Positions 1,947 through 61,242 of a stretch of DNA of 64,000 nt are shown here, piece after piece. How positions within the stretch are numbered: the stretch's first letter is position 1; each line of letters opens with the position of its first letter. Made by a program: the position numbers and the translations under genes. Source of the DNA: Gammaproteobacteria bacterium (GTDB taxonomy: Bacteria > Pseudomonadota > Gammaproteobacteria > JACKNK01); contig JACKNK010000001.1 in assembly GCA_024234955.1 (NCBI GenBank), forward strand, positions 212,835 to 276,834, given 5' to 3'. The notes below the pieces were generated by a model. The model did not search any database, was not told the origin of the DNA, and saw only the letters and a list, made by a program, of their open reading frames with translations.

Positions 1947-2546
1947 TTAGGCGACATGCGATACCTGATTGAGAAATGTACGCATAGCTTTTCGGTAACG
2001 AAAGAGCATTGAAAAACCGACAGTCAACTCGTCACCAGCCTGCGGCAAGGGCTCAATGAATGATCTGACTATCTTGATTGATTTGTCGTTCCACACACCT
2101 TGTCCGTGTGTAAGTACGTTTCGTACTGCTACGAGTTCAAAGCAGCCATTTGCTGCCCAGTGATAGCGTTGATCCAACCCTTTCTTGAGCTTCTCGACTT
2201 TTGACTGAGGAAAATTTCCCGCTGTTTCACCCCGTGCGGAAAGCGCTTCATTCATCATTTCATCAAGGATCACAACGAGATCTTGCACCAGCATCTTAAT
2301 TACTTGTCGAGATGTGTCTTCGAAGTGCATTGAAGGATCACGCCTGAAGGTAAGCACCTTCTTCCCCTCGGGGTGCGCTAGAAGAACGGAGTTGTAAGAG
2401 CAGTCTGGTGTCACCCAGGTATGCGCGTCGCGAGCGCGCTGATCCAGACTGGTCAAATCTCCAAACTGTTGTTCCCTCGAGATATGTAGCGAGTGAATCA
2501 GAGTGTAAAGAGTGCTGGTCCAGACGTTGACTCTCTCCCAGTCCAC
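1947..2546 (-). CDS. Hypothetical protein in a low-GC island, with a possible HEPN-like Rx4H motif (RNVLTH).
   Basis: 199-aa ORF in a ~48% GC patch. It points the same way as the next two genes. It contains the RNVLTH motif. Confidence 0.45.
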   Translation of the reverse strand: MDWERVNVWTSTLYTLIHSLHISREQQFGDLTSLDQRARDAHTWVTPDCSYNSVLLAHPEGKKVLTFRRDPSMHFEDTSRQVIKMLVQDLVVILDEMMNEALSARGETAGNFPQSKVEKLKKGLDQRYHWAANGCFELVAVRNVLTHGQGVWNDKSIKIVRSFIEPLPQAGDELTVGFSMLFRYRKAMRTFLNQVSHVA

Positions 2547-2607
2547 TTGGATTTCCTCCTATCAAACATCCTTTTGGATGTTTTCGTGGTAACGGGGGAG
2601 AGCCCCA

Positions 2608-3078
2608 TTACGCACAAACTGGCTCAGATTTTAACTTTTCTTCGACGCGAATTCGGTGGCGATTAGAAAGGATGGCTTTTTGTTGTTCTATATCGAGATA
2701 CCTATAACTCTGTGGTGCTACGAACCCCGACATTGCAATGCGCAGGTGTTCTAGTCTTATCGGCTCGATAGATTCGTAATGCGAAAGTTGAACGGCAAAT
2801 CCTGCATCTTGATCTTGGAAGTAGTGGTCGAAGCGATCACGGGAAAGTCCTACTTTTGCCCTATGACGCGCCCACAACTCCGTTGGCTTATCTACGTCGA
2901 TACTCGCAACGCGAACCCTGCCTAGAATCGCCCCGACAGGCAGGGTTACATACAAATAAATCCATGTTCCTTCAGGTGCATCAGGAAAACGGCGGCGCAG
3001 TTCCACGGTCTTTGATCCGCCGGCGATCTTCTCAGCAAACTCTGGTGCGACAGATAACAAAATTGCACGACCGTTCAT
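2608..3078 (-). CDS. ASCH-domain (PUA-like) protein.
   Basis: 156 aa. The N-terminus ILLSVAPEFAEKIAGGSKTVELRRR resembles ASCH/PUA-like beta-barrel proteins. It overlaps the upstream gene by 4 nt, which suggests an operon. Confidence 0.5.
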   Translation of the reverse strand: MNGRAILLSVAPEFAEKIAGGSKTVELRRRFPDAPEGTWIYLYVTLPVGAILGRVRVASIDVDKPTELWARHRAKVGLSRDRFDHYFQDQDAGFAVQLSHYESIEPIRLEHLRIAMSGFVAPQSYRYLDIEQQKAILSNRHRIRVEEKLKSEPVCA

Positions 3079-5162
3079 GCCAACATCCTCATGCCCTCTT
3101 GGTAGACCTCTGTAAACAGCCCCTCTGGCACACGCAAGGGTCCTGGCACACGATTTTTTGTGCCCATGTGGTCAAGGATTAAGTTTTCTAGCCGTTTCCA
3201 TGGCAACGGACAGACCAGTAGTTCTGTTTTCGCAAAGTGATACGCCTTCAGTTTCGCGGAAGGATCTCCTCCTGCGGCGTCCAAAATATTCTGCCATGTG
3301 TACGCACCGAGACGATGGAATTTTCTCGACAAGCGGGTCGCCTCGTCCGTCTCGGTTCCCAGGCAGAGTGAGACTGCACGGACCTCGCTGACAGGGCTGC
3401 TCACGTACCAGAGGATTCGGCTTCCCTCGGGGATCACAACGTTCGACCGAGAGTAGTAGACGTTTTCTAACGCCAGTGCAGGGTGTTCCGGGACATCAAA
3501 AAAGTCGTTTTCCGCGAGATCACGATCGAACAGCGCGGTTGCCCAGTATTTCTGGATTGGAACGATGTAGGTCGATATGCCAGCTCCAAGGACCTTGAGG
3601 GGCCAGAACATCGCCTCAAGTTCGCGAGGTTCGAGGGCGGCCAGTGTCGACACATCTGGGAAGTGGTCGTTTATAAGGTCAATCGCGCCCGTTACATCAA
3701 CCATCTCTCGTAGGGTCTGGAACACAAGAATTCCATCACGCGAATACTGAAACCCCAGTTCCAGAAGAGCTTCCTGAATATCGCCAGAACCGGGGTCATC
3801 GATCATTACGGAGGTGAGCCCCTGCCTATTCGCAATCTCAATCACATCTGCTAGGGCACGCCGCAAGAGCGTACCGGTCAACGGGCCACTGAGAGTGCGG
3901 AGAAAGCGAAGGCGTAGCGAACTGGGTGGCGACTGATCGACGGCCAGGGCTACTCGCGGATGCTCTCCGCGCACGCCGATTAACTGGACTGTGCATCTGC
4001 TGCACGACGAGAGGGTGGTTCGTATCATCCTCAGCCAAGTCGCTTTGGTTTCTCCAGAAGAGAATCGCTGAAAGGGCAGAAGGTCATGTTCCGTGACGAT
4101 CGACCGTCGCTCAACGCGTGTACCGTTGAGACGAACCGGCGCGTATGTTTGTCCGAGAAAATTCCCTTGTAAACGAGCCACCATGTCGCAAGGACGAAGT
4201 ACGGTTAACCCTGTTACCGTCAGAATGTCGTCCGCATGATCGAGAAGAACTTCATCGCGGGTCGCGAAATATTTGGCACCGTCCAGGGATGCATGGGCGA
4301 GTTGGCGACGGTCGGAAAAGTCAGAGTGGGTAACCGGCGTAGGCATTACGTCACCGATCTCGTCCAGCATCTCGTCTAGCTTGTCAGGATGTCCCGCGAG
4401 TTCTTCGAATCGATGAAAGTATGACAACGCCCGTTGCCGCTTTGCGGGGTCCGGTTGGCGTGAGACTTCATTACGAAGTTCACGGGTTACACAAATTTCG
4501 ACATCATCAAGCCAATCACTTAGTAACCCTCCACTCTCCTCATAGTGTGGGGCGGCAGGATCCATGATGTCGAAAAAGACATTGGCATCGATCGCAATTA
4601 GGCGGGACGGTGCTCCAGGCGCGTCCCGGATAGCTCGCAACAGCGGTGCATCATCTCGATTGACTCGGCGCCACTCAAAAAGTGGCATTGAGTCCGCACC
4701 TCGACCGACTATCTCGTTATCCAAGGCGAACCCGTGTTTCGGCCATAACTGATTTGCAGCCTCGTAGTCTTTGCGGCAACGCAAACGAATCGCGTTGGCG
4801 TCCTTGCTTAGATGAATCAGGTGCCGCAAGAGATTTTCGGAGCAATCAGAACCGCGGTGCTCCTCCGCAACACACAGGTGCACCAAGACGACCTCGCCCC
4901 TGGAGCGTCTCCAAGCTGCGTACCCTAGTAGCTCCTCGTTCCGCGTATGGGCAAGAACACAGCCGGCATGTACGAATTCGTCTAACGCGCCACGCGGAAG
5001 AAAGCCGAGTGTGTTGGAGTTTTTACGGTACAAATCCCACACTTTATCCACCAGGATTGAACCAGGTGGTACCAGGGAAAGCATGCTTTCGGTCATCCCT
5101 GCGAATCCTTTCCTTTCGTATGTGCCAATTAGTACGTAGTCATTCGCTTGGTGGACGAGCAC
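3075..5162 (-). CDS. Multidomain protein: N-terminal GNAT acetyltransferase, a PIN nuclease domain, a second GNAT-like region, and a C-terminal domain of unknown (possibly PUA/EVE-like) fold.
   Basis: 695 aa. The GNAT motif is LVHLCVAEEHRGSDCSENLLRHL. The PIN motif is LIAIDANVFFDIMD. A second acetyltransferase-like stretch reads LTSVMIDDPGSGDIQEALLELGF. GC is low. Confidence 0.55.
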   Translation of the reverse strand: MLVHQANDYVLIGTYERKGFAGMTESMLSLVPPGSILVDKVWDLYRKNSNTLGFLPRGALDEFVHAGCVLAHTRNEELLGYAAWRRSRGEVVLVHLCVAEEHRGSDCSENLLRHLIHLSKDANAIRLRCRKDYEAANQLWPKHGFALDNEIVGRGADSMPLFEWRRVNRDDAPLLRAIRDAPGAPSRLIAIDANVFFDIMDPAAPHYEESGGLLSDWLDDVEICVTRELRNEVSRQPDPAKRQRALSYFHRFEELAGHPDKLDEMLDEIGDVMPTPVTHSDFSDRRQLAHASLDGAKYFATRDEVLLDHADDILTVTGLTVLRPCDMVARLQGNFLGQTYAPVRLNGTRVERRSIVTEHDLLPFQRFSSGETKATWLRMIRTTLSSCSRCTVQLIGVRGEHPRVALAVDQSPPSSLRLRFLRTLSGPLTGTLLRRALADVIEIANRQGLTSVMIDDPGSGDIQEALLELGFQYSRDGILVFQTLREMVDVTGAIDLINDHFPDVSTLAALEPRELEAMFWPLKVLGAGISTYIVPIQKYWATALFDRDLAENDFFDVPEHPALALENVYYSRSNVVIPEGSRILWYVSSPVSEVRAVSLCLGTETDEATRLSRKFHRLGAYTWQNILDAAGGDPSAKLKAYHFAKTELLVCPLPWKRLENLILDHMGTKNRVPGPLRVPEGLFTEVYQEGMRMLA

Positions 5163-5445
5163 TAGAATTCAGCGATCGTTCGGGTGATCACGGCGAAGTG
5201 GCGCTGCCTTGAGCGTTGGAGCACGCTTCGTCCCCGGCTATTTGTAGGGCGTTGCGAGGTTCTCTGACCACATCGTCGTCTGATGAGCGAGTGAGTATGA
5301 TCACGATTCGTTGCTTCCGGACAAAGGTAGCGCAAAGTGATCCGATATATCAGCTGACGCTGTTGTTTTCAGAAAATGCTTAGAGTTACTGGTTGGATCA
5401 GTTCTCGCAGCGTTGTTCTTTTGAGTGCGGACTTTTAACAGAATG

Positions 5446-5541
5446 CCCATTTTGTTCAATGTCGGGTGTCGCCGGGTACGGTACGACGGGTTCTCGCGAG
5501 GTCCCGTGACTGACGTGCCAAACTCCGTTTTGTTCAAAGTC
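5446..5541. repeat. Two copies of a ~16-bp direct repeat, ttttgttcaa(t/a)gtcg, 78 bp apart, just upstream of the fimB-like gene.
   Basis: Seen at ~5446-5463 and ~5524-5541, in the divergent intergenic region between the GNAT-PIN gene and the fimB-like gene. Confidence 0.5.
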
Positions 5542-5549
5542 GCGGAGAG

Positions 5550-6134
5550 ATGGTGGTGGAAGAGGGTGTTCAGCTGGTTGTCGATGGCCATGACCGGCAG
5601 GGCCGGGACTTTCTGACCCCATCGGAGATCACGCAGCTGCTCGATGCCGCCAAGAAAGGTCGGCATGGCGTTCGTGACCATGCCTTGCTGCTGACGATGT
5701 ATCGGCATGGATATCGGGTCTCGGAACTCTGTGAGGCGACGCTCAACGACTTGAGTCTTGGCGAGGCGCACATCTGGGTACGGCGAAAGAAGGGATCGAT
5801 GTCGACTCAGCAGCCGATCGAAGGCGACGAACTGCGTGCCTTGCGTCGTTACCTGCGGACAAGGTCATTGAATCAACGATGGCTGTTCCTGTCGGAGCGG
5901 GACGGGCCCTTAACGCGGAATGCGGTGTACTACCTGGTCACGCGTGCCGGCGAAAAGGCTGGACTGCCCTTCACCGTGCATCCGCATATGCTGAGGCACT
6001 CGTGCGGGTACTACCTGGCCAACAAGGGTTACGACTTGAGATTGATCCAGGACTACTTGGGGCACCGAAATCCTACGCATACAGCCAGATATACTCGAAC
6101 CGCATCCGCGCGATTTCATGGACTTTGGTCGTAG
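5550..6134 (+). CDS. FimB/FimE-family tyrosine recombinase, a short site-specific invertase-type recombinase.
   Basis: 194 aa. It is very similar to E. coli FimB throughout, for example HPHMLRHSCGYYLANKGYDLRLIQDYLGHRNPTHTARYT, with the catalytic R..HxxR..Y residues. Confidence 0.85.
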   Translation: MVVEEGVQLVVDGHDRQGRDFLTPSEITQLLDAAKKGRHGVRDHALLLTMYRHGYRVSELCEATLNDLSLGEAHIWVRRKKGSMSTQQPIEGDELRALRRYLRTRSLNQRWLFLSERDGPLTRNAVYYLVTRAGEKAGLPFTVHPHMLRHSCGYYLANKGYDLRLIQDYLGHRNPTHTARYTRTASARFHGLWS

Positions 6135-6501: not shown

Positions 6502-7416
6502 CTAAACGCGCGGCAGCTGCCGAATGACCTGCCGCTGCAACTCCTCGTTGCTGTGTACGTATTCCAGGGTGGACCGGTAGTCGTTGTGTCCCATCAGTTC
6601 CTGCAGGGTGCGTAGATCCGTTTTTGGCGCAAGCATGGTACCGAAGGTGTGTCGCAGCTTGTGCGCGCTGATCGGGATGCTCAGATGGTCGGAGAGGCGG
6701 CGAAAAAAACCGCTGATTTGCTCCGGCGTCAGTTCATCCCCTTTGAAGCGTGTCGTGAACCGGGTCACGTTGAAAAGCTGTTCATCCTGGTCATCGATGC
6801 AAACCTGTATCTCTGACCGGTTCAGCAGGCGCACGAGATGGGGCAGTAAGAGATCCGAGATCGCAATGTCGCGGGCCTCTCCGTTCTTCGAGAACTCGGC
6901 CCGGAGGTGGATGGCGCCAGCGCGAAGGTCGACGTCACCAACACGGATGCCGGCGAGTTGGCGCCGGCGGATTCCGGTGAAGAACAGCGTTCGTATCGCT
7001 GTCGCCCAAAACCAGCCTGGCTCCAAGGCGCAGTCTGGCCCCTCCAGGTAGTCAATCGCAGATTGCACGGTCTCCAGCTGAAGAGACTTCGGCAGCTTCT
7101 TGGGTGGACGTAGCGTTACCCGATCGAAGGGGTTGCTCTCGATGCCTGATTCCACGACATCTTTGCGCAGGAACTCCCACAGGGCCCGCATATGCACGGC
7201 GTAGTTGTTCCAGCTCCGGATCGCTGCTCGGCTCAGTACCTGCTCACGCCAGAGAAGCACGCCTTGCCGGGTCAAGGAGGCCACGTTCCCCACAGGATGG
7301 CCCAGGGCCTCCAAATCTCGCTCGGCGAGAGCAATGACTGTCTGGTAGTGACGCATCGTCGCCGCGCTGGGTAACCGCTCCAGGCGGTAGGCGTTCAGTG
7401 CATCCCACAGTGTCAT
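6502..7416 (-). CDS. Tyrosine site-specific integrase/recombinase of the phage-integrase family, XerC/XerD-like.
   Basis: 304 aa. The C-terminal catalytic region AHKLRHTFGTML...LMGHNDYRSTLEYVH carries the R-H-R-Y signature. Confidence 0.85.
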   Translation of the reverse strand: MTLWDALNAYRLERLPSAATMRHYQTVIALAERDLEALGHPVGNVASLTRQGVLLWREQVLSRAAIRSWNNYAVHMRALWEFLRKDVVESGIESNPFDRVTLRPPKKLPKSLQLETVQSAIDYLEGPDCALEPGWFWATAIRTLFFTGIRRRQLAGIRVGDVDLRAGAIHLRAEFSKNGEARDIAISDLLLPHLVRLLNRSEIQVCIDDQDEQLFNVTRFTTRFKGDELTPEQISGFFRRLSDHLSIPISAHKLRHTFGTMLAPKTDLRTLQELMGHNDYRSTLEYVHSNEELQRQVIRQLPRV

Positions 7417-43677: not shown

Positions 43678-44367
43678 TTACGCGGCTTGACGGATCCAGG
43701 CGCCGAGTTCGCGATCCCAACGGAAGCCGTGGTCACGCAGAAATCGACGCTTGTCGTCGAACTTCGGATCGGCCTTGTCGAGCTTTTCCACGTCTTCCAG
43801 CGACCGGTCGAACGGGGAATCCGCACCAGCGGAATCACCTTCGTCGGCAGCGGTTTCGGTCCGAGTCGGCTCGGCGGAGGCCTTCGCGTCGTCATCGGAA
43901 TCCGTCTCGGTATCGGTGTCACCGTCATCGGTGGAATTCACCTCGCCGTAGACGAGTTCGTCGTTTACAAAAAGCCACATCACCTCGAACAGACGCCCCT
44001 TGATCACCAGCTTCGGCTTGTCAGCCTCTTTGCCGGGGATCGCATACGGGTACGAATCGCCGATCTTGAAGCCGAGCTTCACTCTCGGGCGATCTTTCGC
44101 GTCGTAATCGAAGTTGTACTTCGCCATCAGCCCCTTGATCAGATCGATCAGCTCCGGGGTCACGACCTTGCAGTCGTAGGCGGTGGAGTTGTAGCGGACA
44201 TGGCCGGACTTGGGATCCTGCTTGGCCTTGCCGCGTTGGGCGGAGATGGAGACCCACAGGGTGGAGTCGCCTTCTTCGGGGGTGAACCAGCGCGGGTAAT
44301 TGAGATAACCCTTACCGGTGGTGACCAGGTTGGCAAAGGTGCCTTCGTTGTTGAGATCAGTGCTCAT
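43678..44367 (-). CDS. DUF3577-like ICE protein. The start is taken at MSTDLNNEG.
   Basis: It has an acidic D/E/T-rich C-terminal tail and lies in a conserved position next to csrA. Confidence 0.45.
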   Translation of the reverse strand: MSTDLNNEGTFANLVTTGKGYLNYPRWFTPEEGDSTLWVSISAQRGKAKQDPKSGHVRYNSTAYDCKVVTPELIDLIKGLMAKYNFDYDAKDRPRVKLGFKIGDSYPYAIPGKEADKPKLVIKGRLFEVMWLFVNDELVYGEVNSTDDGDTDTETDSDDDAKASAEPTRTETAADEGDSAGADSPFDRSLEDVEKLDKADPKFDDKRRFLRDHGFRWDRELGAWIRQAA

Positions 44368-44583
44368 TGGGGTTTCCTCCAGAGGAAATGAAACCGAGAG
44401 ACACACCGATCTCCCATCCGGGAAGGCGTGTTCCCGGTGGGATTGACGTTGAGAAGTGGGACTCATCGATCGCTGGGAGCGGTCGATCGCGACGTTACGG
44501 AGTCCGAGGCGTCGCTTTAGTCGGCCTACCGAAGCAGGCACGAAACTGATTCGGACCCTAGATCAGGTCCGAAGAACAGGCAG

Positions 44584-44628
44584 AAAAAAGCCGGCGCAGC
44601 CTGTCAGGCATTTTCGCGCCGGCGATCA
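44584..44628 (-). terminator. Rho-independent terminator downstream of csrA: stem gccggcgc/gcgccggc followed by a T6 run on the minus strand.
   Basis: Read from the sequence. Confidence 0.5.
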
Positions 44629-44655: not shown

Positions 44656-44856
44656 TCAAGCGGCGTTGGACTCCCCATCACCGGCACCGGCCTGCTCACT
44701 CTTGATGCGCTCGTAGATCTCCTCACGGTGCACCGCGACGTCGCGAGGGGCGTCGATACCAATGCGCACCTGATTGCCCACCACTGCCAACACGGTGACC
44801 GAAACGTCGTCACCGATCATCAGTGTTTCACCAACGCGACGCGTAAGGATCAGCAC
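44656..44856 (-). CDS. csrA: CsrA/RsmA-family carbon storage regulator, the ICE-borne copy.
   Basis: [51 protein letters not shown] is near-identical to the CsrA consensus. Confidence 0.9.
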
Positions 44857-45143
44857 GGCTTGACCTCCTTCACGCGCTCTTTGAGCGCCTGACCCGGCTT
44901 GAAGCCGATGGAAGTGCGCGCCGGCGCCGTCTGCATCTCGCCGGTTCGCGGATTGCGTACCTGCCGCGCATCACGGGCTCGGAGCTGGAACGTGCCGAAG
45001 TCACGGATCTGCACACTGTGACCCTGCGCGAGTGCGTCGCTGATCGCCTCGATGACGGCATCGACCGCGTCACCGGCAGCCTTGTTGGACATGCTCAAGT
45101 TGTCGGCGACGGCTTCCACCAGGTCGCGCTTAATCTTACTCAT
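44850..45143 (-). CDS. HU/IHF-family DNA-binding protein.
   Basis: It has the motif [22 protein letters not shown]...GFKPG. Confidence 0.85.
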
Positions 45144-45516
45144 CGGTCTTCTCCTTCAGAAAGGTCACATCCTTCACCGCGATGGTGTCGAGTGCAACGT
45201 GCGACACGTTCATCGCCATGCCACGCTGTTCATTCTGACCTTCATCCTTCCAGGCGTCCTGCCGAAGTGAACCGATGACGATCACGGGCTGGCCTTTGCG
45301 AAGCAGGGCGGTCAGACGATCAGCGAAGTCCGGGTTCCTGGTCCACCGCGTGCAACCGAGCCAGAAGCCGCCCTGGTCCTTGTACCCACCGCTGCCATCC
45401 GGCACGCGGTTCTCGACGAACACGCGGAAATTGATCGCGTAGCGTTCGCCCTCGGGAGTGGAAGCAGTACGGCGCACCGCGTCCGCACCGAGGTTTCCAT
45501 TCTGGGTGATCTCCAT
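45136..45516 (-). CDS. ssb: Single-stranded DNA-binding protein. The start is taken at MEITQNGNL.
   Basis: It has the OB-fold SSB pattern (NLGADAVRR...RYAINFRVFVENR...GFWLGCTRW). Confidence 0.8.
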   Translation of the reverse strand: MEITQNGNLGADAVRRTASTPEGERYAINFRVFVENRVPDGSGGYKDQGGFWLGCTRWTRNPDFADRLTALLRKGQPVIVIGSLRQDAWKDEGQNEQRGMAMNVSHVALDTIAVKDVTFLKEKTDE

Positions 45517-45628: not shown

Positions 45629-46057
45629 TCAGAACGGCACGTCATTTCCCACTGATTCACGGAGCCGTGTGACGTGTCCGCGCTGATCCAGCCACTTGGA
45701 CACACGCTGCAGTTCGTACAGGGCCACCGCCAGCTGGTGATTCAAATCCTGCCGTCGTACCTCGAACTCCACCCATACCGGCCACGCAAGTTCCGGCAGT
45801 TGCTGCCGGACCGCCTGGCCGTCGGTGTCCCACAGCTCGAAGCGAGGATTGTTGCCGCCGGATAGCCGCCACCGCATGGCGGTCAATGAGCCATCCGGAT
45901 TCATGGCCAGGTAAGCCGGTCGACGGCCACGAGGAAATTGCCGATTGAACTCGTCAATCATCGAATGGGCTTCCAGGTTGAGTGCCTCAACCCGCTGAGC
46001 CAACTCCTGGCGCAGTTTCCGTTGCGCTGCCACCGTGTACGAATGACTCACAGCCAC
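45629..46057 (-). CDS. Conserved ICE hypothetical protein.
   Basis: 142 aa. Its promoter region carries repeats (see the next entry). Confidence 0.4.
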   Translation of the reverse strand: MAVSHSYTVAAQRKLRQELAQRVEALNLEAHSMIDEFNRQFPRGRRPAYLAMNPDGSLTAMRWRLSGGNNPRFELWDTDGQAVRQQLPELAWPVWVEFEVRRQDLNHQLAVALYELQRVSKWLDQRGHVTRLRESVGNDVPF

Positions 46058-46243
46058 CCTTCCCTTAAAAGGCCCTTTCAGGAACCGTCACCCAAAGCCT
46101 GCCAAGGACCGTCAGTAAACGGAAGGGCAGGGACCGTCAGTGAGAATGCGGCACGGCTGCTGGTAGGACGGCATAAAAGTGTGGGTCATGATCGCCCGAT
46201 TACACGGCTCTTACCGGCGCCATATTTCAGTCCTGAGCGGGAG

Positions 46244-46268
46244 CGAAAGCTTTAAACCACTGGTTTAA
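46244..46268. promoter_or_regulatory. Perfect 23-bp palindrome, gctttaaacca-c-tggtttaaagc, an operator-like site. Three gRaccgtca motifs lie upstream at ~46100-46170.
   Basis: Read from the sequence, in the intergenic region upstream of the 142-aa gene. Confidence 0.5.
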
Positions 46269-46317
46269 AGCGTTTGGCACGATCTTTGAGACACGGCGAG
46301 CGGATCACCCGTGCCGA

Positions 46318-47130
46318 CTACTGAGCCACCTCCTCATCCGCCGGCTCATCCACCTCGCCGTCGACCTTGAAGTCCATGTCGGAATTCGTCTCGGTGTCCC
46401 GCTCATGTTGAGCCATGGCCATGCCACGGTTAAACACCGGCAGCCGTGGAGGAGCGAAGGGCGCAACGACGGTGCCGGTCAGAATCTCGGATGGAATCTC
46501 GCCATACTTCTCCACTGCCTCACGCGCTCGCTTGGTGTTGTGCTCGAAGTCCGCGTGGGACACACCGGTGAATCGATAGCCCTGCGTCAAGATGAACGCA
46601 TGCCGCACTGCCGAGCTCGCCTCGCCGATCAGGCGATGCGCGCGTTCACGTTCCAGGAAGCCGATATGGGCCAGCGTGCGTACCGTGCGCACATAAGTGT
46701 CGAGATCCTGCAACAGATAGGCGCAACGGAACCCATACGGGTTGTTGAAGCGCAGCGTGATGGTCGCTGGGCGTCTCGTGATACCGGGCTCCGCAGTGAC
46801 ACCCGGCCGCGATGCCATCAGCTTGCGACCGCCTTCAAGCAATTTGGACAGGTACTCGGCTTTCTCGGTCAGGGACTCATGAACCCGTACCAGCATCCAG
46901 TCGGCATACGGATCGCCATCGCGATAGCCGGCAAGGATGTTACGCAGCGCGGCGCCCGCCTGGCGTAGGCCGATGATCCCGTGCTTGCCGGTGTCGTCAT
47001 CGCGCCGGCGACCGTCGACCAACATGAACGCGGTGCGGGTATGCACCACCATCGTGGTCTCGGATACCAGTCCACCGGGCGGATTGTCTGAATGCGGGGC
47101 AACGCCCGCCGTTGCTTGAGGCTCGGTCAT
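46318..47130 (-). CDS. ICE protein, PFL_4669-family-like (TIGR03761/DUF1845-like).
   Basis: 270 aa with an acidic C-terminus. It lies in a conserved backbone position next to the putative origin region. Confidence 0.4.
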   Translation of the reverse strand: MTEPQATAGVAPHSDNPPGGLVSETTMVVHTRTAFMLVDGRRRDDDTGKHGIIGLRQAGAALRNILAGYRDGDPYADWMLVRVHESLTEKAEYLSKLLEGGRKLMASRPGVTAEPGITRRPATITLRFNNPYGFRCAYLLQDLDTYVRTVRTLAHIGFLERERAHRLIGEASSAVRHAFILTQGYRFTGVSHADFEHNTKRAREAVEKYGEIPSEILTGTVVAPFAPPRLPVFNRGMAMAQHERDTETNSDMDFKVDGEVDEPADEEVAQ

Positions 47131-47459
47131 GGCTCAGCTCTTGGTGTGGATGTAGAGCCGGGAACGTACCGATGCGATCAGGAGACACGCGTAAAAGCCC
47201 GTAGTACGGGCTACGCGATTAATTCAAACGAATGCAGGACGGGAGCGTTAGGCGCGCTTGGAGCGCGCCCTGGTGGCGACAAGGATGTCGCCCCTACCTG
47301 GACTCAGCACAGGGATGCGTGCGTGACCAGATCGGAACGGGGTTCGGTCACGGCGCCGAGGTCCGATGCAGCCCGAACCTGACACCCTTCAAAACCATAC
47401 GGCCTGTTGGTTCACGATGACCTGGCAGGAAACACGCCAACGGTACTTATCAGTTGGGA

Positions 47460-47980
47460 AACGGATGCTGTCCAGGGACGGACTCCGAGTAGAAGCGACA
47501 GGATGTCGCGTTCAGGCCGCGTAGCGGGGCGGAACCAAGGAAGGTGAAGGGTAGGCGCGTCCTTGTTTGAAGTCGCGGACTGGGGCGGCTTGAGACAAAT
47601 CCCCATCGAGGTCACCAATGGGAAACTGCTGTCCATGGATGGACGCCTTTCATGCACGGCAGGAAGCCGTGCTTAGGCCGCGAAGCGGGGCGCAGCCAGG
47701 ACGGCGGAGGGTAGGCGCGCGAAGCGCGGTCGAAATTCGCGGTTTTTCCACACGTGAACCGCTTCCAAAAACTACAGGCTTTATATAAAGGTCTGAATAG
47801 GGAGCTACAGGTAGGTACAGGCGGTTCGCTGGAGGCCGCATCTACATTGCCTTTCGGGCCTGTCAGCGGGAGTGATTCTGCGTCAGGGCGGGAGTGATTC
47901 TGCGTAGGACCGGGAGTGATTCTGCGTAGGACCGGGAGTGATTCTGCGTAGGGCCGGGAGCGATTCTGCGCGTACTTCCA
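47460..47980. repeat. Iteron-like repeat region. It has two degenerate ~160-bp direct repeats (47467-47627 and 47628-~47790), an AT-rich core (ttatataaagg) and a DnaA-box-like ttttccaca. Five tandem 22-bp repeats, ccgggagtgattctgcgtagga, span 47867-47976. It is a candidate origin of replication.
   Basis: Repeats were read directly from the sequence. The region is a ~940-bp non-coding gap. Confidence 0.6.
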
Positions 47981-48071: not shown

Positions 48072-48851
48072 TTAGAGAAGGCTGGCTTGAGCGCCGAGCT
48101 TTGGCATGTCGTCCCATGTGCGGCCACTCAACAGCCGTCCATTCTTGGACTTGGCTCGCCGCTTACCGTCAGCACCCCAACCACCCCATTGCTTGAAGAA
48201 GAAAAGCACGTGGTCACGGTCGCACTGCCGCTGCACGTTCAAAGCCCATTCCTCATGCATAGGGCGAGCTTTCGGGCCTGATTCACCGCCGACAATCACC
48301 CAATCGATGCCGTTCAGATCGAGCCGGCCGAGATCCTCAAGCAGAGGTTCGACGGACAAGAAGCGGATTGCGGCGTCAACGGTACGAAGGGCATCAATAC
48401 GCGGCAATCCGTGTTTGCGGTTCTCCACGCTGACACCCAGCCAGACGTTCACTGGCGCTTTCCGTGTCGAGAAGTATTCCGCCATCCGCTCTGCGCGTTT
48501 GGTCAGGATCTGATAGGTGTGCTGCGGCGTTTCAGTGATTACCTTGAACACTTGGTCAAGGAATGAGTCTGGGACGTCCTCGTGGAACAGGTCGCTCATC
48601 GAGTTGACGAAGTAAACGGTCGCTTTTTTTCGCTGCCTCGGCTCGTCTAGCCGTTTTGCCAACAGCGTCAGGTTGAAGCCGTTCCCATATCCAGGCGCGC
48701 CCATGGCTTGCAGCCGTCTAGCCATCACTTCGGCGTAACAGTGCTTACAACCAGGAGAAACCTTGGTACAGCCGGTAGTCGGGTTCCAAGTCCTCTCAGT
48801 CCATTCGATTTTTGACTCGGTCCCCATGGGACATCCTCCAGAAGGCCGCAC
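48072..48851 (-). CDS. DUF5131 / phage Gp37-Gp68-family three-Cys-motif protein.
   Basis: It has the N-terminal motif KIEWTERTWNPTTGCTKVSPGCKHCYA (C-x6-C-x2-C). GC is low. Confidence 0.7.
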   Translation of the reverse strand: MRPSGGCPMGTESKIEWTERTWNPTTGCTKVSPGCKHCYAEVMARRLQAMGAPGYGNGFNLTLLAKRLDEPRQRKKATVYFVNSMSDLFHEDVPDSFLDQVFKVITETPQHTYQILTKRAERMAEYFSTRKAPVNVWLGVSVENRKHGLPRIDALRTVDAAIRFLSVEPLLEDLGRLDLNGIDWVIVGGESGPKARPMHEEWALNVQRQCDRDHVLFFFKQWGGWGADGKRRAKSKNGRLLSGRTWDDMPKLGAQASLL

Positions 48852-49111
48852 AACGACTGTACGAATAATCAGTATTATAGTGCTCCTTCACGACCGAAGG
48901 AGCTCATTCACATGCAGATATTGCGGCTGCTCAACCTCAGCCGAAGCAAAACCATGTCTCAAGGTCGCCGCTCTTATAGCCGATCGTAGCTGGCTAACGA
49001 CAGTGCGTACGTTCCACGACTGGTGTTCGCGCAGGGGGCAAGCCTGCACGGTCACGCATACACTTGGCTTTTTTCAGTACGCCGGAACGAGGAGCCGGAA
49101 GGAAACCAAGG

Positions 49112-50269
49112 ATGAAATTACCAGAGCGATACCACCGCCATGAACAGGCCTATGTGAAGCACGAGTTGCTATCCGGCTACCTGGAAGTGCTTCTAATGAT
49201 TATCGGCCAATGGGCGAAGGAAATCGTCTACATCGATTGTTTCGCCGGCCCTTGGTGTGACGATTCCGATGACATCGAGGGAACCTCCATCGCTCGGTCG
49301 ATCGCAATCATGCAGAAGGCTCGAGACAGCCTCGCGTCGGCTGGTAAGTACGTCACCATGCGTGCTTTGTACATTGAGCGTGATGACGATGCCTACACGC
49401 GGTTGCAAAATTACTTGGCAACCAAACGAACGGCTGTTGAAACTCAGTGCCTGAAAGGCGATTTTGTCGAACTCAGAGACCAGATCCTTCAGTGGGCCGG
49501 ATCTCGTGCCTTTGCCTTCTTCTTCGTCGACCCCAAAGGCTATCGCGATGTGGCGCTACCGCATCTACGACCGCTTCTGGAACGACCGCAGAGCGAGTTT
49601 TTGATCAACTTCATGTACTCGTTCGTCAACATGGCCAACTCCGACAAGAACAGGCAAGCATTTTCGAAATACCTTCTGGAGCTGTTCGGAGAAATCCCGG
49701 TGGTTGATGGTCTGTCACCAGTCGAACGCGAGGACCGATTGCTGTCCTTGTACACGGATCGGGTGAAGGATGGTGTGGGTCCAGACGCCAGGGCGACCGC
49801 AGTAAAGGTCTTAGACCCAACCAAGGACCGGACGAAGTATCACCTCGTGTATCTCACGCGCAATCCGCTTGGCATCATCAAGTTCATGGAACAGTCCGAG
49901 CGATGCGCAATCGTCCAGGAGCGTGTGCGCCTCGACGCCAAACTGAGAGCAAAAGAAGAACGTACCGGAACAGGTGATTTATTTGCGGATGACGACGGAG
50001 ACGATTCCGTCTCAACAATGGCTGCAACCGACTTCCAGCAACCGCTCCGAGAACATTGGCTTGGGTGGGTCAGTACGGTTCCCAAAGCGTTCACGAAAGA
50101 AGATTTCGCCTCCATGATCGAGACCACTGGTGCATATCCAAGTCAGATTCAAATGGCATTGGGATCCCTGATCAGTGAAGGTCGAATACAGAATCTCGAT
50201 TCACGCGGTAAGCGAAGAAAGAATTTCGTTCATTTCTCCAAGAACGAACGGCTTGTTCTGTTCCAGTAG
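49112..50269 (+). CDS. tcmP: Three-Cys-motif partner protein TcmP-like. The start is taken at MKLPERYH.
   Basis: It has the motifs HEQAYVKHELLSGYLEVLLMIIG...IDCFAGPW. An SD (aagga) precedes the internal ATG. It is divergent from the DUF5131 gene. Confidence 0.6.
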   Translation: MKLPERYHRHEQAYVKHELLSGYLEVLLMIIGQWAKEIVYIDCFAGPWCDDSDDIEGTSIARSIAIMQKARDSLASAGKYVTMRALYIERDDDAYTRLQNYLATKRTAVETQCLKGDFVELRDQILQWAGSRAFAFFFVDPKGYRDVALPHLRPLLERPQSEFLINFMYSFVNMANSDKNRQAFSKYLLELFGEIPVVDGLSPVEREDRLLSLYTDRVKDGVGPDARATAVKVLDPTKDRTKYHLVYLTRNPLGIIKFMEQSERCAIVQERVRLDAKLRAKEERTGTGDLFADDDGDDSVSTMAATDFQQPLREHWLGWVSTVPKAFTKEDFASMIETTGAYPSQIQMALGSLISEGRIQNLDSRGKRRKNFVHFSKNERLVLFQ

Positions 50270-52331: not shown

Positions 52332-52619
52332 CTACTCCAAACGTTGCTCGGCAGTTTTGTACGCCTGTTCGCCCTCGCGTTTACCGATCGCGACCACGAA
52401 CACGACGACGCGCTGCTCTTGTACCTGGTAGACCAACCGATAGCCCAACTGCTTCAATTTGATCTTGTAGCAATCCGGCAGCCCGCGCAGCCGGTTGGCC
52501 TCGATGCGCGGTGCGTCGAGGACGTGCGCGAGCTTTGTTTTGAATTGACGCTGGATGGTTTCGTCGAGCTTCCGCCACTCCTTCAGTGCGCGGCGGTCGA
52601 ATTCCAGTTCAAAGCTCAT
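52332..52619 (-). CDS. relE: RelE/StbE-family type II toxin.
   Basis: It has the motifs IKLKQLGYRLVYQVQEQRVVVFVVAIGKRE. Confidence 0.85.
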   Translation of the reverse strand: MSFELEFDRRALKEWRKLDETIQRQFKTKLAHVLDAPRIEANRLRGLPDCYKIKLKQLGYRLVYQVQEQRVVVFVVAIGKREGEQAYKTAEQRLE

Positions 52620-52848
52620 CGAGCGTTACACGCACGGCGTCCGGGTTCGCCAATCGCTCCTTGACGATCGCGACCAGCTCCGCGTCTTCCTCGGTCAACA
52701 GAACTTGCTTGAACGGCAATTTTCCTTGCTCGGCGACGTATTCCAAGGTTTGGCGTAGGAGATCGGACGGCGTCACGCCGAGCTTCTCCAGCGCGGCGTA
52801 AGAACGTGCTTTCAAGTCATCGTCCACGCGGATGTTGATCGTGCCCAT
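52609..52848 (-). CDS. relB: RelB/DinJ-family antitoxin.
   Basis: MGTINIRVDDDLKARSYAALEKLGVTPSDLLRQ forms an RHH fold. It lies upstream of the toxin gene and overlaps it. Confidence 0.8.
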   Translation of the reverse strand: MGTINIRVDDDLKARSYAALEKLGVTPSDLLRQTLEYVAEQGKLPFKQVLLTEEDAELVAIVKERLANPDAVRVTLDEL

Positions 52849-56855: not shown

Positions 56856-57115
56856 AATGACCATGGGGTGGGGGCACGGTCCTCGTGTTCGTTTCCGCAA
56901 AGCTCGCCATCGAGCAACGGTAACGTTCAAGCGAACGATGGCCCCTTTGGTGGTGGCCACTCCGAGAGTGGCTCACTACCCGTCGGCCCACGCACCGGTG
57001 CCGACTTACCGGAGCGACCCCTCTGAGCACCCTTGGCCGGGGTGTACAGAGCGTTGCCACGACGTTTCGTGGTGCTTGAGCGGCGACGTCGCCGTGCCCC
57101 CACCCCATGGTCATT
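56856..57115. repeat. Perfect 24-bp inverted repeats, aatgaccatggggtgggggcacgg / ccgtgcccccaccccatggtcatt, flanking a ~212-bp non-coding segment. Its structure is MITE-like.
   Basis: The arms at 56856-56879 and 57092-57115 were read directly. The right arm overlaps the stop of the RepA-like gene. Confidence 0.7.
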
Positions 57116-58052
57116 TCTTTGTTTTGTTCTTTACGTTCACCGGCCTTACATGCGTCCGTGACGGATAGAGCCGTAGGTATTCTGCGTCGTGGTCGACACG
57201 CGCTTGGGGAAACACCTGAAGGACGTGCTTGAGGTTTGGGATGAAGCCCTTGTTCCTGAAGTCACGTAAGCCCTGAGTGGTGTCGGGATAGCCGGCCCCG
57301 AACTGCTTTTGCAGGTAGATCCAGGGGATCGGCGTTGGTCGCCGTAAGTACGAGAACCGATGTGTGAGCCAGCAGTAGATGTCCATGGCCATCGAGGAGC
57401 CACGCAGCGCGTGCATGGCTTGAAGGCTGATCGGAATTGGTGCGGCGGTTACTTCCTCGAAGAAGTTCTCAGAGAGCTTTACGGAGGACTGACCTAAGCC
57501 AAGCTGGTTGGGGTTGTCCGGATCCCACCAAAGGCTGACGTCATCGGTGATGTCGCATTTGCGCTGTGAGAAGGCCTTCCCATCGTCGTAGATGATCCGG
57601 ATCGATGCCGTGAACAATTTGATCGACTGGTCACGCACGACTCGAATCGTGCCGCGTTGGCCCCCCGTCATGTGATCGATGCCGATGTTGGCCAGGTAAT
57701 CACCGAACGTGGCGCCGAGGCCGATCCATCGCTCCTTGGTTTCGACCGCGCGCGTCGTCAACCAAGCGAGGATCAGTCGCGGCTTTGGCCCGTAGGGCAG
57801 GCCGTATCGCGGATCGGAGCTCACCACGACTCGTAGATGGCCATTCGCACGTTCGTGGGAGTAGGCACGGGTGCGTGCGTGGGGCAGGGTCGCACGGGCC
57901 AGTGTCTGAGCCATGTATCCGACCGCGCCGGCGGCGCGGGCTTCTTCGGTCTCCTGTCCCAACGCCTCCTCATACAGCAGATCGAGCGAGGCTTGCTGGC
58001 TCGCCTGCTCGGTCGCGGACAGATCGTTATCCAAGGCGTGACGTGAACTCAT
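57111..58052 (-). CDS. Conserved ICE protein, possibly a replication-initiator-like (RepA/RPA-family) protein.
   Basis: 313 aa. It is located between parB-like and topB, as in related ICEs. The family assignment comes from memory of the element layout, not from a motif. Confidence 0.35.
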   Translation of the reverse strand: MSSRHALDNDLSATEQASQQASLDLLYEEALGQETEEARAAGAVGYMAQTLARATLPHARTRAYSHERANGHLRVVVSSDPRYGLPYGPKPRLILAWLTTRAVETKERWIGLGATFGDYLANIGIDHMTGGQRGTIRVVRDQSIKLFTASIRIIYDDGKAFSQRKCDITDDVSLWWDPDNPNQLGLGQSSVKLSENFFEEVTAAPIPISLQAMHALRGSSMAMDIYCWLTHRFSYLRRPTPIPWIYLQKQFGAGYPDTTQGLRDFRNKGFIPNLKHVLQVFPQARVDHDAEYLRLYPSRTHVRPVNVKNKTKK

Positions 58053-61171: not shown

Positions 61172-61242
61172 CGTCCTTCCTCCGAATCAGGTCCATGTTC
61201 CTGAATACGTTGAGAAAAAACCGATAGACGCCAATTGAATGG

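Follow-up and report, generated by a model that had tools for sequence, protein, structure and literature searches.

An intact csrA gene of chromosomal type in the ssb-HU operon of a PFGI-1-class integrative conjugative element

The 64,000-nucleotide stretch analysed here (the window; positions 212,835 to 276,834 of contig JACKNK010000001.1, from a gammaproteobacterial assembly) is almost wholly an integrative conjugative element (ICE) of the PFGI-1 class (ICEclc/PAPI-1/SPI-7-like). Within its whole length there is a single CsrA-like open reading frame (ORF), which by its sequence is an intact, nearly standard csrA. The explanation that we favour, and hold to be fairly probable, is that an intact and functional csrA of chromosomal type was acquired by one lineage of PFGI-1-class ICEs and was built in behind ssb and HU as the final gene of their operon, from which it would add to or slightly re-tune the CsrA pool of the host.

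44656..44856, minus strand: csrA coding sequence, 66 amino acids, GTG start and TGA stop (ORF list, Pfam and NCBIfam matches)

The original prediction of a 66-residue CsrA at this place is borne out by the reading frame and by scores above the cut-offs of both family databases: 91.1 bits for Pfam CsrA (PF02599, cut-off 27), and 111.5 and 96.5 bits for NCBIfam PRK01712 (cut-off 73) and TIGR00202 (cut-off 70.1). Residues 1-56 align without gaps to the solved CsrA/RsmA chains 7yr6, 1vpz, 1y00 and 2bti (E ~1e-24), whose fold has five strands and a C-terminal helix, with 80-83% identity to the proteins of P. aeruginosa, E. coli and Yersinia. The C-terminal tail beyond this core is distinct, being acidic and rich in glycine. 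The GC content of the gene (0.61, and 0.70 at third codon positions) is similar to that of the adjoining ICE genes.

RNA binding by CsrA depends, as we take it from an alanine scan of the E. coli protein and from RsmE, on L2, L4, R6 and R7 of strand β1 and on V40, V42, R44 and I47 of β5 and the start of the helix. Both segments are intact in the ICE protein, as MLILTRR and VAVHREEIY, respectively. The residues themselves are the same as in 119/119 nearest homologues, except for V40, which is replaced by I in 22 of them.

The protein had been called near-consensus, a label that hides two positions in the turn after β3, where the ICE protein has A24 and V26 and all 119 nearest homologues have G and K (G24A, K26V). 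The invariance of both sites in these homologues is what could suggest a protein that is impaired or neo-functionalised, for instance as a dominant-negative partner of host CsrA. That reading is highly improbable to us: the RNA-binding segments are wholly kept, the reading frame is intact, and working members of the family vary at the matching positions, RsmE having Ser and B. subtilis CsrA having Ala and Glu. A literature search on the role of K26 turned up only a remark on a contact with CesT, which is uninformative here.

The surroundings of csrA on the minus strand are as follows.

45136..45516, minus strand: ssb, 126 amino acids from the ATG at 45516 (Pfam SSB, 36.4 bits)
44850..45143, minus strand: gene of an HU-family DNA-binding protein, 97 amino acids, translationally coupled to csrA (Pfam Bac_DNA_binding, 99.1 bits)
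44864..44870, minus strand: Shine-Dalgarno sequence of csrA, AAGGAGG, within the 3' end of the HU gene and 8 nucleotides upstream of the GTG (sequence reading)
44584..44623, minus strand: intrinsic terminator of the operon, made of a hairpin (44590..44623) and a U6 run (44584..44589) (RNA fold)

The gene is thus placed, as the original prediction had it, after ssb and an HU gene and before a terminator: the overlapping genes ssb, HU and csrA form an operon, with csrA at its end and a strong intrinsic terminator behind it. The ssb stop and the start of the HU gene share an ATGA, and the GTG of csrA lies 7 nucleotides inside the HU reading frame, at its 3' end. The terminator hairpin is rich in GC, has 13 pairs, begins 33 nucleotides past the csrA stop codon and is present in both the minimum-free-energy and the centroid structures; a terminator scan independently picked up part of it. 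The ssb product scores 69.7 bits with NCBIfam PRK08182, just below the curated cut-off of 70, and its start matches the gene call in a metagenome contig (L001). Of the 'HU/IHF' assignment proposed for the second gene, the HU family is retained through the Bac_DNA_binding match, and IHF is dropped: the protein reaches 84 and 79 bits with the IHF-alpha and IHF-beta models, under their curated cut-offs of 111 and 115.

That the operon belongs to an ICE, also part of the original prediction, is confirmed by the PFGI-1-class marker proteins encoded around csrA. We defined the class by the set TIGR03744, 03746, 03748, 03749, 03752, 03754-56, 03759, 03761 and 03764. Most of these models score above their cut-offs in the window; TIGR03749 falls just short, with 137.0 against 138.8 bits. 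Proteins above curated cut-offs include TraD (TIGR03754), a PFL_4706-type TraC ATPase, PilL2, the families TIGR03746/52/55/56/59, a PFL_4669/AcaB-family protein and a PFGI-1 ParB. The window also holds a type IV pilus cluster and TopB, as well as a XerC-like tyrosine recombinase at 6502..7416; no tRNA or att repeat was found within it. Two genes of the element flank the operon region and serve as landmarks below.

46318..47130, minus strand: acaB, ICE regulator gene of the PFL_4669 family (TIGR03761) (Pfam AcaB, 184.9 bits; TIGR03761, 177.3 bits)
43678..44367, minus strand: DUF3577/STY4534-family gene, directly downstream of the csrA terminator (Pfam DUF3577, 55.4 bits)

The same csrA and flanks occur identically in four independent assemblies. 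Three contigs are 100% identical to the window; the fourth (L001, 20 kb) equals it save for one indel of 22 nucleotides near 47867..47976. The indel is one iteron unit long, and is either a variation in iteron copy number or an assembly difference. The longest contig on record for the CsrA protein measures 975,765 bp. In exactly this form, the CsrA, HU and AcaB proteins are found in two NCBI records of metagenome-assembled genomes (MAGs), both named 'Gammaproteobacteria bacterium', and in several independent metagenome assemblies; all three proteins are singletons when clustered at 90% identity.

The relatives of the protein point to chromosomes. The closest proteins are 82-92% identical and come mostly from Chromatiaceae and unclassified Gammaproteobacteria. 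All of the five closest that were checked are chromosomal, located after aspartokinase or among other chromosomal genes, with no ICE genes near; where longer sequence existed, the locus of the close relatives reads (recX-)alaS-ask-csrA. Among the 80 closest metagenome loci, aspartokinase stands immediately upstream of csrA in 39, and SSB, HU or DUF3577 stands near csrA in none (0/80). Equally, none of the 80 nearest CsrA loci has an ICE-borne csrA. Around the ICE gene we found no chromosomal csrA flanks, neither a csrA leader nor tRNA-Ser, and a megablast search of the csrA neighbourhood against plasmids returned zero matches.

In nucleotide sequence, the ICE csrA is at most 78% identical to any relative in the sample, which does not include the chromosomal csrA of the host itself. 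Against all sampled relatives the rate of nonsynonymous change (dN) is about 0.1, and that of synonymous change (dS), where it could be computed, reaches about 1 or higher, with synonymous sites near or at saturation. The combination of low dN and high dS indicates purifying selection on csrA. The identity of no more than 78% argues for an old capture or a distant donor, and not for a recent duplicate of a known gene. On these comparisons, the gene is best described as a csrA of chromosomal type that this ICE lineage captured and then remodelled into the operon; the donor was probably a gammaproteobacterial chromosome in a Chromatiales-like host.

To place csrA among related elements, we collected 80 ICE loci from 185,579 species-representative genomes with an alignment of 13 AcaB sequences; an alignment of 66 AcaB sequences was too diverse for the locus search. 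The AcaB proteins of these loci are 31-40% identical to that of the window, and their hosts are mostly Chromatiales, Ectothiorhodospiraceae, Methylococcales and unclassified Gammaproteobacteria. Across the 80 loci a module recurs in the order AcaB, hypothetical gene, SSB, (HU), (TopB) and, further on, DUF3577 and RadC/DUF3275. HU follows SSB in five loci, with TopB directly next in three, after small ORFs in one, and other ORFs in the remaining one. A canonical csrA is present in the module in 0/80 loci. This absence implies that csrA is not needed for the basic life cycle of the ICE, and by sequence comparison the gene is a one-off acquisition in this element, not a conserved trait of its relatives.

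Two related ICEs carry CsrA-like ORFs of another kind. In L045 (10214..10414), a divergent ORF (36% identity, 38.9 bits with Pfam CsrA) that has an N-terminal extension follows the hypothetical gene and stands just ahead of TopB. In L018 (12964..13131), a decayed ORF of 65.4 bits, without the HREE motif, is found just upstream of DUF3577 and near transposase-like remnants. A third locus, L086 (60..3082, a Haliea MAG), concerns the chromosomal gene: the tRNA-Ser(GCT) gene that directly follows chromosomal ask-csrA is occupied by a related ICE, whose integrase adjoins the tRNA. Integration of this type, in the tRNA-Ser that follows csrA, brings ICEs of this family next to chromosomal csrA, and is a possible route by which the family captured the gene.

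The original prediction had also considered that the gene might be a recent pseudo-duplicate of the chromosomal csrA, lacking ICE-specific conservation. The lack of conservation is real, both in the 80 ICEs and in the 80 nearest csrA loci. A recent or degenerate duplicate is not what the nucleotide divergence, the low dN and the overlapping frames describe, in a comparison that has the host csrA outside it.

The same observations bear on whether the gene does anything for the element. It could be a neutral passenger, caught by chance through recombination or imprecise excision at the csrA-tRNA-Ser site, harmless and with no role for the ICE. The chromosomal type of the sequence, its absence from all related ICEs and the integration of L086 directly beside host csrA would fit such an origin, and the decayed ORF of L018, beside its transposase-like remnants, shows that such captures can rot. 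The ICE csrA, on the other hand, is intact and has shed all chromosomal flanks; it is tied into the operon by the 7-nucleotide overlap and a Shine-Dalgarno sequence internal to the HU gene; and it combines its distance from sampled relatives with a low dN. We consider a mere passenger unlikely.

Several points also weigh against the explanation that we favour, a functional csrA acquired and integrated into the operon. The gene is missing from every one of the related ICEs; G24A and K26V alter sites that are otherwise invariant among the nearest homologues; the host's own csrA is not among the sequences compared; and the measured purifying selection may for the most part be older than the capture. 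To these is added the scarcity of GGA in the leaders of pilL2 and of most transfer genes, described below.

If csrA acts as its position suggests, it would be co-expressed with ssb and HU whenever the DNA-processing module is switched on, that is during transfer, replication or establishment. The product would dimerise as CsrA usually does, perhaps pairing with host CsrA as well, and would bind A(N)GGA motifs. In this way it would add to the CsrA pool of the host or slightly re-tune it, and so shift how host mRNAs are translated. Within the element, the leaders of parA and of the DUF3577 gene would be the most plausible direct targets.

61172..61215, minus strand: parA leader, best candidate CsrA target (5 GGA in 90 nucleotides; fold)
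44368..44470, minus strand: leader of the DUF3577 gene (5 GGA; fold z = -3.24)

The search for GGA-rich leaders in ICE transcripts, for which traI and pilL had been put forward, was largely negative, only the two leaders above being rich. The leader of pilL2 has GGA only in its Shine-Dalgarno sequence, and no traI relaxase could be located within the window. Most leaders of transfer genes are at background, about 1.8 GGA per 100 nucleotides, and matches to the CA(N)GGANG site rarely overlie the predicted start of a real gene in the window. In the parA leader, the predicted hairpin UCAGG[AACAUGGA]CCUGA exposes ANGGA in its loop, 9 nucleotides before the GGA-rich Shine-Dalgarno sequence GGAGGAAGGA; this layout, a loop ANGGA followed by a GGA-rich Shine-Dalgarno sequence, is that of a classic CsrA-repressed mRNA. 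In the DUF3577 leader, a UUUCCUC further upstream pairs with the Shine-Dalgarno sequence GGAGGAAA, which is closely preceded by a terminator-like hairpin; the fold suggests attenuation or translational control. Judged by these motifs, the two leaders are the most plausible candidates for direct CsrA targets on the element.

Compared with chromosomal CsrA/RsmA proteins (E. coli, 1Y00; P. aeruginosa RsmA, 1VPZ/7YR6; Chromatiaceae), the ICE protein belongs to the same length class, is 80-92% identical over a core of 55 residues and has identical β1 and β5 RNA-binding segments. It differs in its setting, after ssb and HU instead of within recX-alaS-ask-csrA-tRNA-Ser, in A24/V26 and in its distinct tail.

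CsrA genes on mobile elements are already on record. In Legionella, a diverse cluster of ICE-associated CsrA paralogues lies beside type IVA secretion genes (PMC4471563), and a role in the regulation of ICE or host traits was proposed for these paralogues, which are of the CsrT/LvrC class (PMC4471563, PMC7366521). The likeness is that of a CsrA-family gene on an ICE, next to conjugation genes. The differences are threefold. First, the Legionella paralogues are divergent, with 28-58% identity among themselves, whereas the ICE CsrA is canonical, judged by its 82-92% identity to chromosomal CsrAs. Second, the Legionella genes are reportedly inherited together with the type IV secretion system in all known Legionella ICEs, whereas the present gene has no canonical counterpart in the module of its 80 related ICEs. 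Third, the element is of another class (PFGI-1, with mating-pair formation of type MPF-G).

Rsm homologues are also carried by Pseudomonas plasmids, phages and conjugative elements (PMC7366521). RsmQ of plasmid pQBR103 reprogrammes its host; it has a host-like RNA specificity and can take part in the host Rsm network (PMC9928087). A tblastn search of PLSDB gave CsrA homologues in 273 records, including some of megabase size that are chromosome-like. RsmQ and its like resemble the ICE gene as mobile-element copies of CsrA/RsmA, but reside on plasmids; the ICE CsrA is nearest to chromosomal CsrA of Chromatiales type and mostly 60-80% identical to plasmid copies.

The gene is therefore an ordinary new example of a mobile-element CsrA, as in Legionella elements and Pseudomonas plasmids, with no new mechanism. 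It extends the list to the PFGI-1/ICEclc-like class and to uncultured bacterial relatives of sulfur oxidisers, and what is joined here to an ssb-HU module is a canonical CsrA, not a divergent one. A mobile element that brings a copy of a global regulator can rewire its host; this has been shown for RsmQ on its plasmid, and the Legionella ICE paralogues were proposed to act likewise. The present element offers a clean test case of whether an extra dose of host-like CsrA at ICE activation benefits the element.

A more unusual by-product of the analysis is a module with GGA-loop hairpins, 2.4 kb from csrA. At 47235..47704 on the plus strand, in a non-coding stretch of 940 nucleotides upstream of acaB, nine CA(N)GGANG sites occur in 470 nucleotides. 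Elsewhere in the window, with both strands counted, no stretch of 560 nucleotides has more than three, and in 200 Markov randomisations the count always stays below nine. Across 1.4 Mb of other loci that were fetched, a density of at least five sites per 400 nucleotides is found only in copies of this same ICE. The array counts 22 GGA on the plus strand and 7 on the minus strand; E. coli CsrB, by the same measure, has 22 GGA and 10 sites. Most of the nine sites lie in hairpin loops by inspection, and a scan for stems of at least 4 bp gives eight GGA-loop hairpins, six of them coinciding with sites of the nine. Two tandem GC-rich units of about 160 nucleotides differ in their stems by compensatory changes.

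47452..47580 and 47616..47752, plus strand: tandem hairpin units, with related hairpins at 47253..47325 (repeat and fold comparison)
47744..47752, plus strand: DnaA-box-like TTTTCCACA (sequence)
47779..47791, plus strand: AT-rich stretch (sequence)
47867..47976, plus strand: five 22-bp direct repeats GGGAGTGATTCTGCGTAGGNCC (iteron-like repeats)
57111..58052, minus strand: RepA homologue, 313 amino acids (homology to RepA of pMBUI6 and of P. aeruginosa conjugative plasmids)

The core of a unit consists of an A(N)GGA-loop hairpin, a hairpin AGGCCGC...GCGGGGCG, a second GGA-loop hairpin and then GGAGGGTAGGCG. In a sensitive blastn search against plasmids, this core is 84-91% conserved over 47-63 nucleotides, in non-coding DNA beside the rep gene of plasmids from P. 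hydrolytica, P. mendocina, P. aeruginosa, Halomonas and Sedimenticola and of pMBUI6. A DnaA box is near the element in four of the six plasmid records examined, just downstream in P. aeruginosa, pMBUI6 and Sedimenticola. In both plasmids examined base by base (L177 and L179; P. hydrolytica and Sedimenticola), the element is followed by iterons and an AT-rich stretch. The two plasmids examined complete have no csrA. Searched with a covariance model of the two tandem units, the 80 related ICE loci gave no convincing hit (best E = 0.085). We also observe that the A(N)GGA loops are conserved in the plasmid homologues while the stems co-vary.

The features of an iteron replicon are thus all found on the element: 22-bp direct repeats, an AT-rich stretch, a DnaA-box-like sequence and a homologue of RepA. 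The RepA homologue is 31-44% identical to plasmid RepA proteins, with E-values down to 6e-38 (RepA of a P. aeruginosa plasmid), and has no NCBIfam match. From its sequence features, the region upstream of acaB is best read as the plasmid-type origin (oriV) of the ICE, and together with the RepA homologue it suggests that the ICE has a plasmid-type replicon of its own. The order of parts, GC-rich hairpin element, DnaA box, AT-rich stretch and 22-bp direct repeats, is the same as in iteron replicons with RepA (pMBUI6, Pseudomonas and Sedimenticola plasmids). The ICE differs from these in having its repA gene 9 kb from the iterons, its GC-rich element in two to three tandem copies and its replicon in an integrated element.

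Could the array nevertheless be a partner of CsrA, as a sponge RNA or as hairpins of origin RNA or single-stranded DNA through which CsrA controls replication? The array resembles CsrB/RsmX/Y/Z sponge RNAs in the number and type of its sites (as in E. coli CsrB) and in their placement in loops, the density is peculiar to this ICE, the stems show compensatory changes, and RsmQ binds GGA hairpins of single-stranded DNA in vitro (PMC9928087). Unlike the sponge RNAs, it has the architecture of a plasmid oriV, found also in plasmids without csrA. Rfam gives no match around acaB and the array even at E <= 10, no promoter-like site was found for the array, and matches to the GacA box are at chance level, none of them near it. 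What might pass for the U-run of a terminator coincides with the DnaA-box-like TTTTCCACA, so that there is no independent sign of a plus-strand transcript. The Halomonas copies of the element, moreover, mostly lack GGA loops. A partnership of CsrA with the array is very unlikely on this evidence, and the sponge RNA (a CsrB/RsmZ analogue) was rejected as the principal reading of the array, its core being found by rep genes of plasmids without csrA.

A more elaborate version would have A(N)GGA hairpins beside oriV, as RNA or as unwound or transferred single-stranded DNA, bind CsrA, of the host or of the ICE, and so couple replication or establishment to the Csr state of the cell. The ICE, with two to three copies of the GC-rich element against a single one in plasmids of Pseudomonas and Sedimenticola and in pMBUI6, would then have raised the number of sites to that of CsrB and, with a CsrA of its own, have formed a self-contained CsrA-origin circuit. 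We give this speculative scheme a very slim chance.

Between acaB and ssb lies one more gene of the module.

45629..46057, minus strand: conserved hypothetical gene, 142 amino acids, preceding ssb (homologues in related ICE loci)

Its product has a homologue in 31 of the loci L010-L089, mostly between AcaB and SSB. The region from acaB to this gene (46080..46271, minus strand) contains a perfect palindrome, GCTTTAAACCAGTGGTTTAAAGC (46249..46271), and two exact CTGACGGTCC boxes spaced by 25 nucleotides (46106..46115 and 46131..46140), with a looser third. It may be an operator or promoter for the hypothetical, ssb, HU and csrA genes.

As for structured RNAs, Rfam has no match in the window at gathering thresholds. 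ARAGORN called a tRNA-Pro(GGG) of 83 nucleotides at 44441..44523 on the plus strand, a possible scar of capture; it is probably a false positive, with no Rfam tRNA there even at E <= 10. The sole Rfam match between csrA and DUF3577 is to a eukaryotic long non-coding RNA model (E = 4.5) and is spurious.

Elsewhere in the window, cargo-like genes occupy 48072..50269 and 52332..52848, between the oriV-like region and TraG_N. They comprise a gene like DUF5131/radical-SAM 'mobile pair protein A' (minus strand), a RelB/ParE toxin-antitoxin pair and a TcmP-family gene (plus strand) whose start is preceded by GGAAGGAAACCAAGGAUG; GC content falls to 0.54-0.55 across 48-52 kb. A second stretch of low GC (0.52-0.55), at 2001..6000, encodes an ORF of 695 amino acids with a weak acetyltransferase match. 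The XerC-like recombinase lies just beyond it, and the stretch possibly represents a boundary of the ICE or an accessory region.

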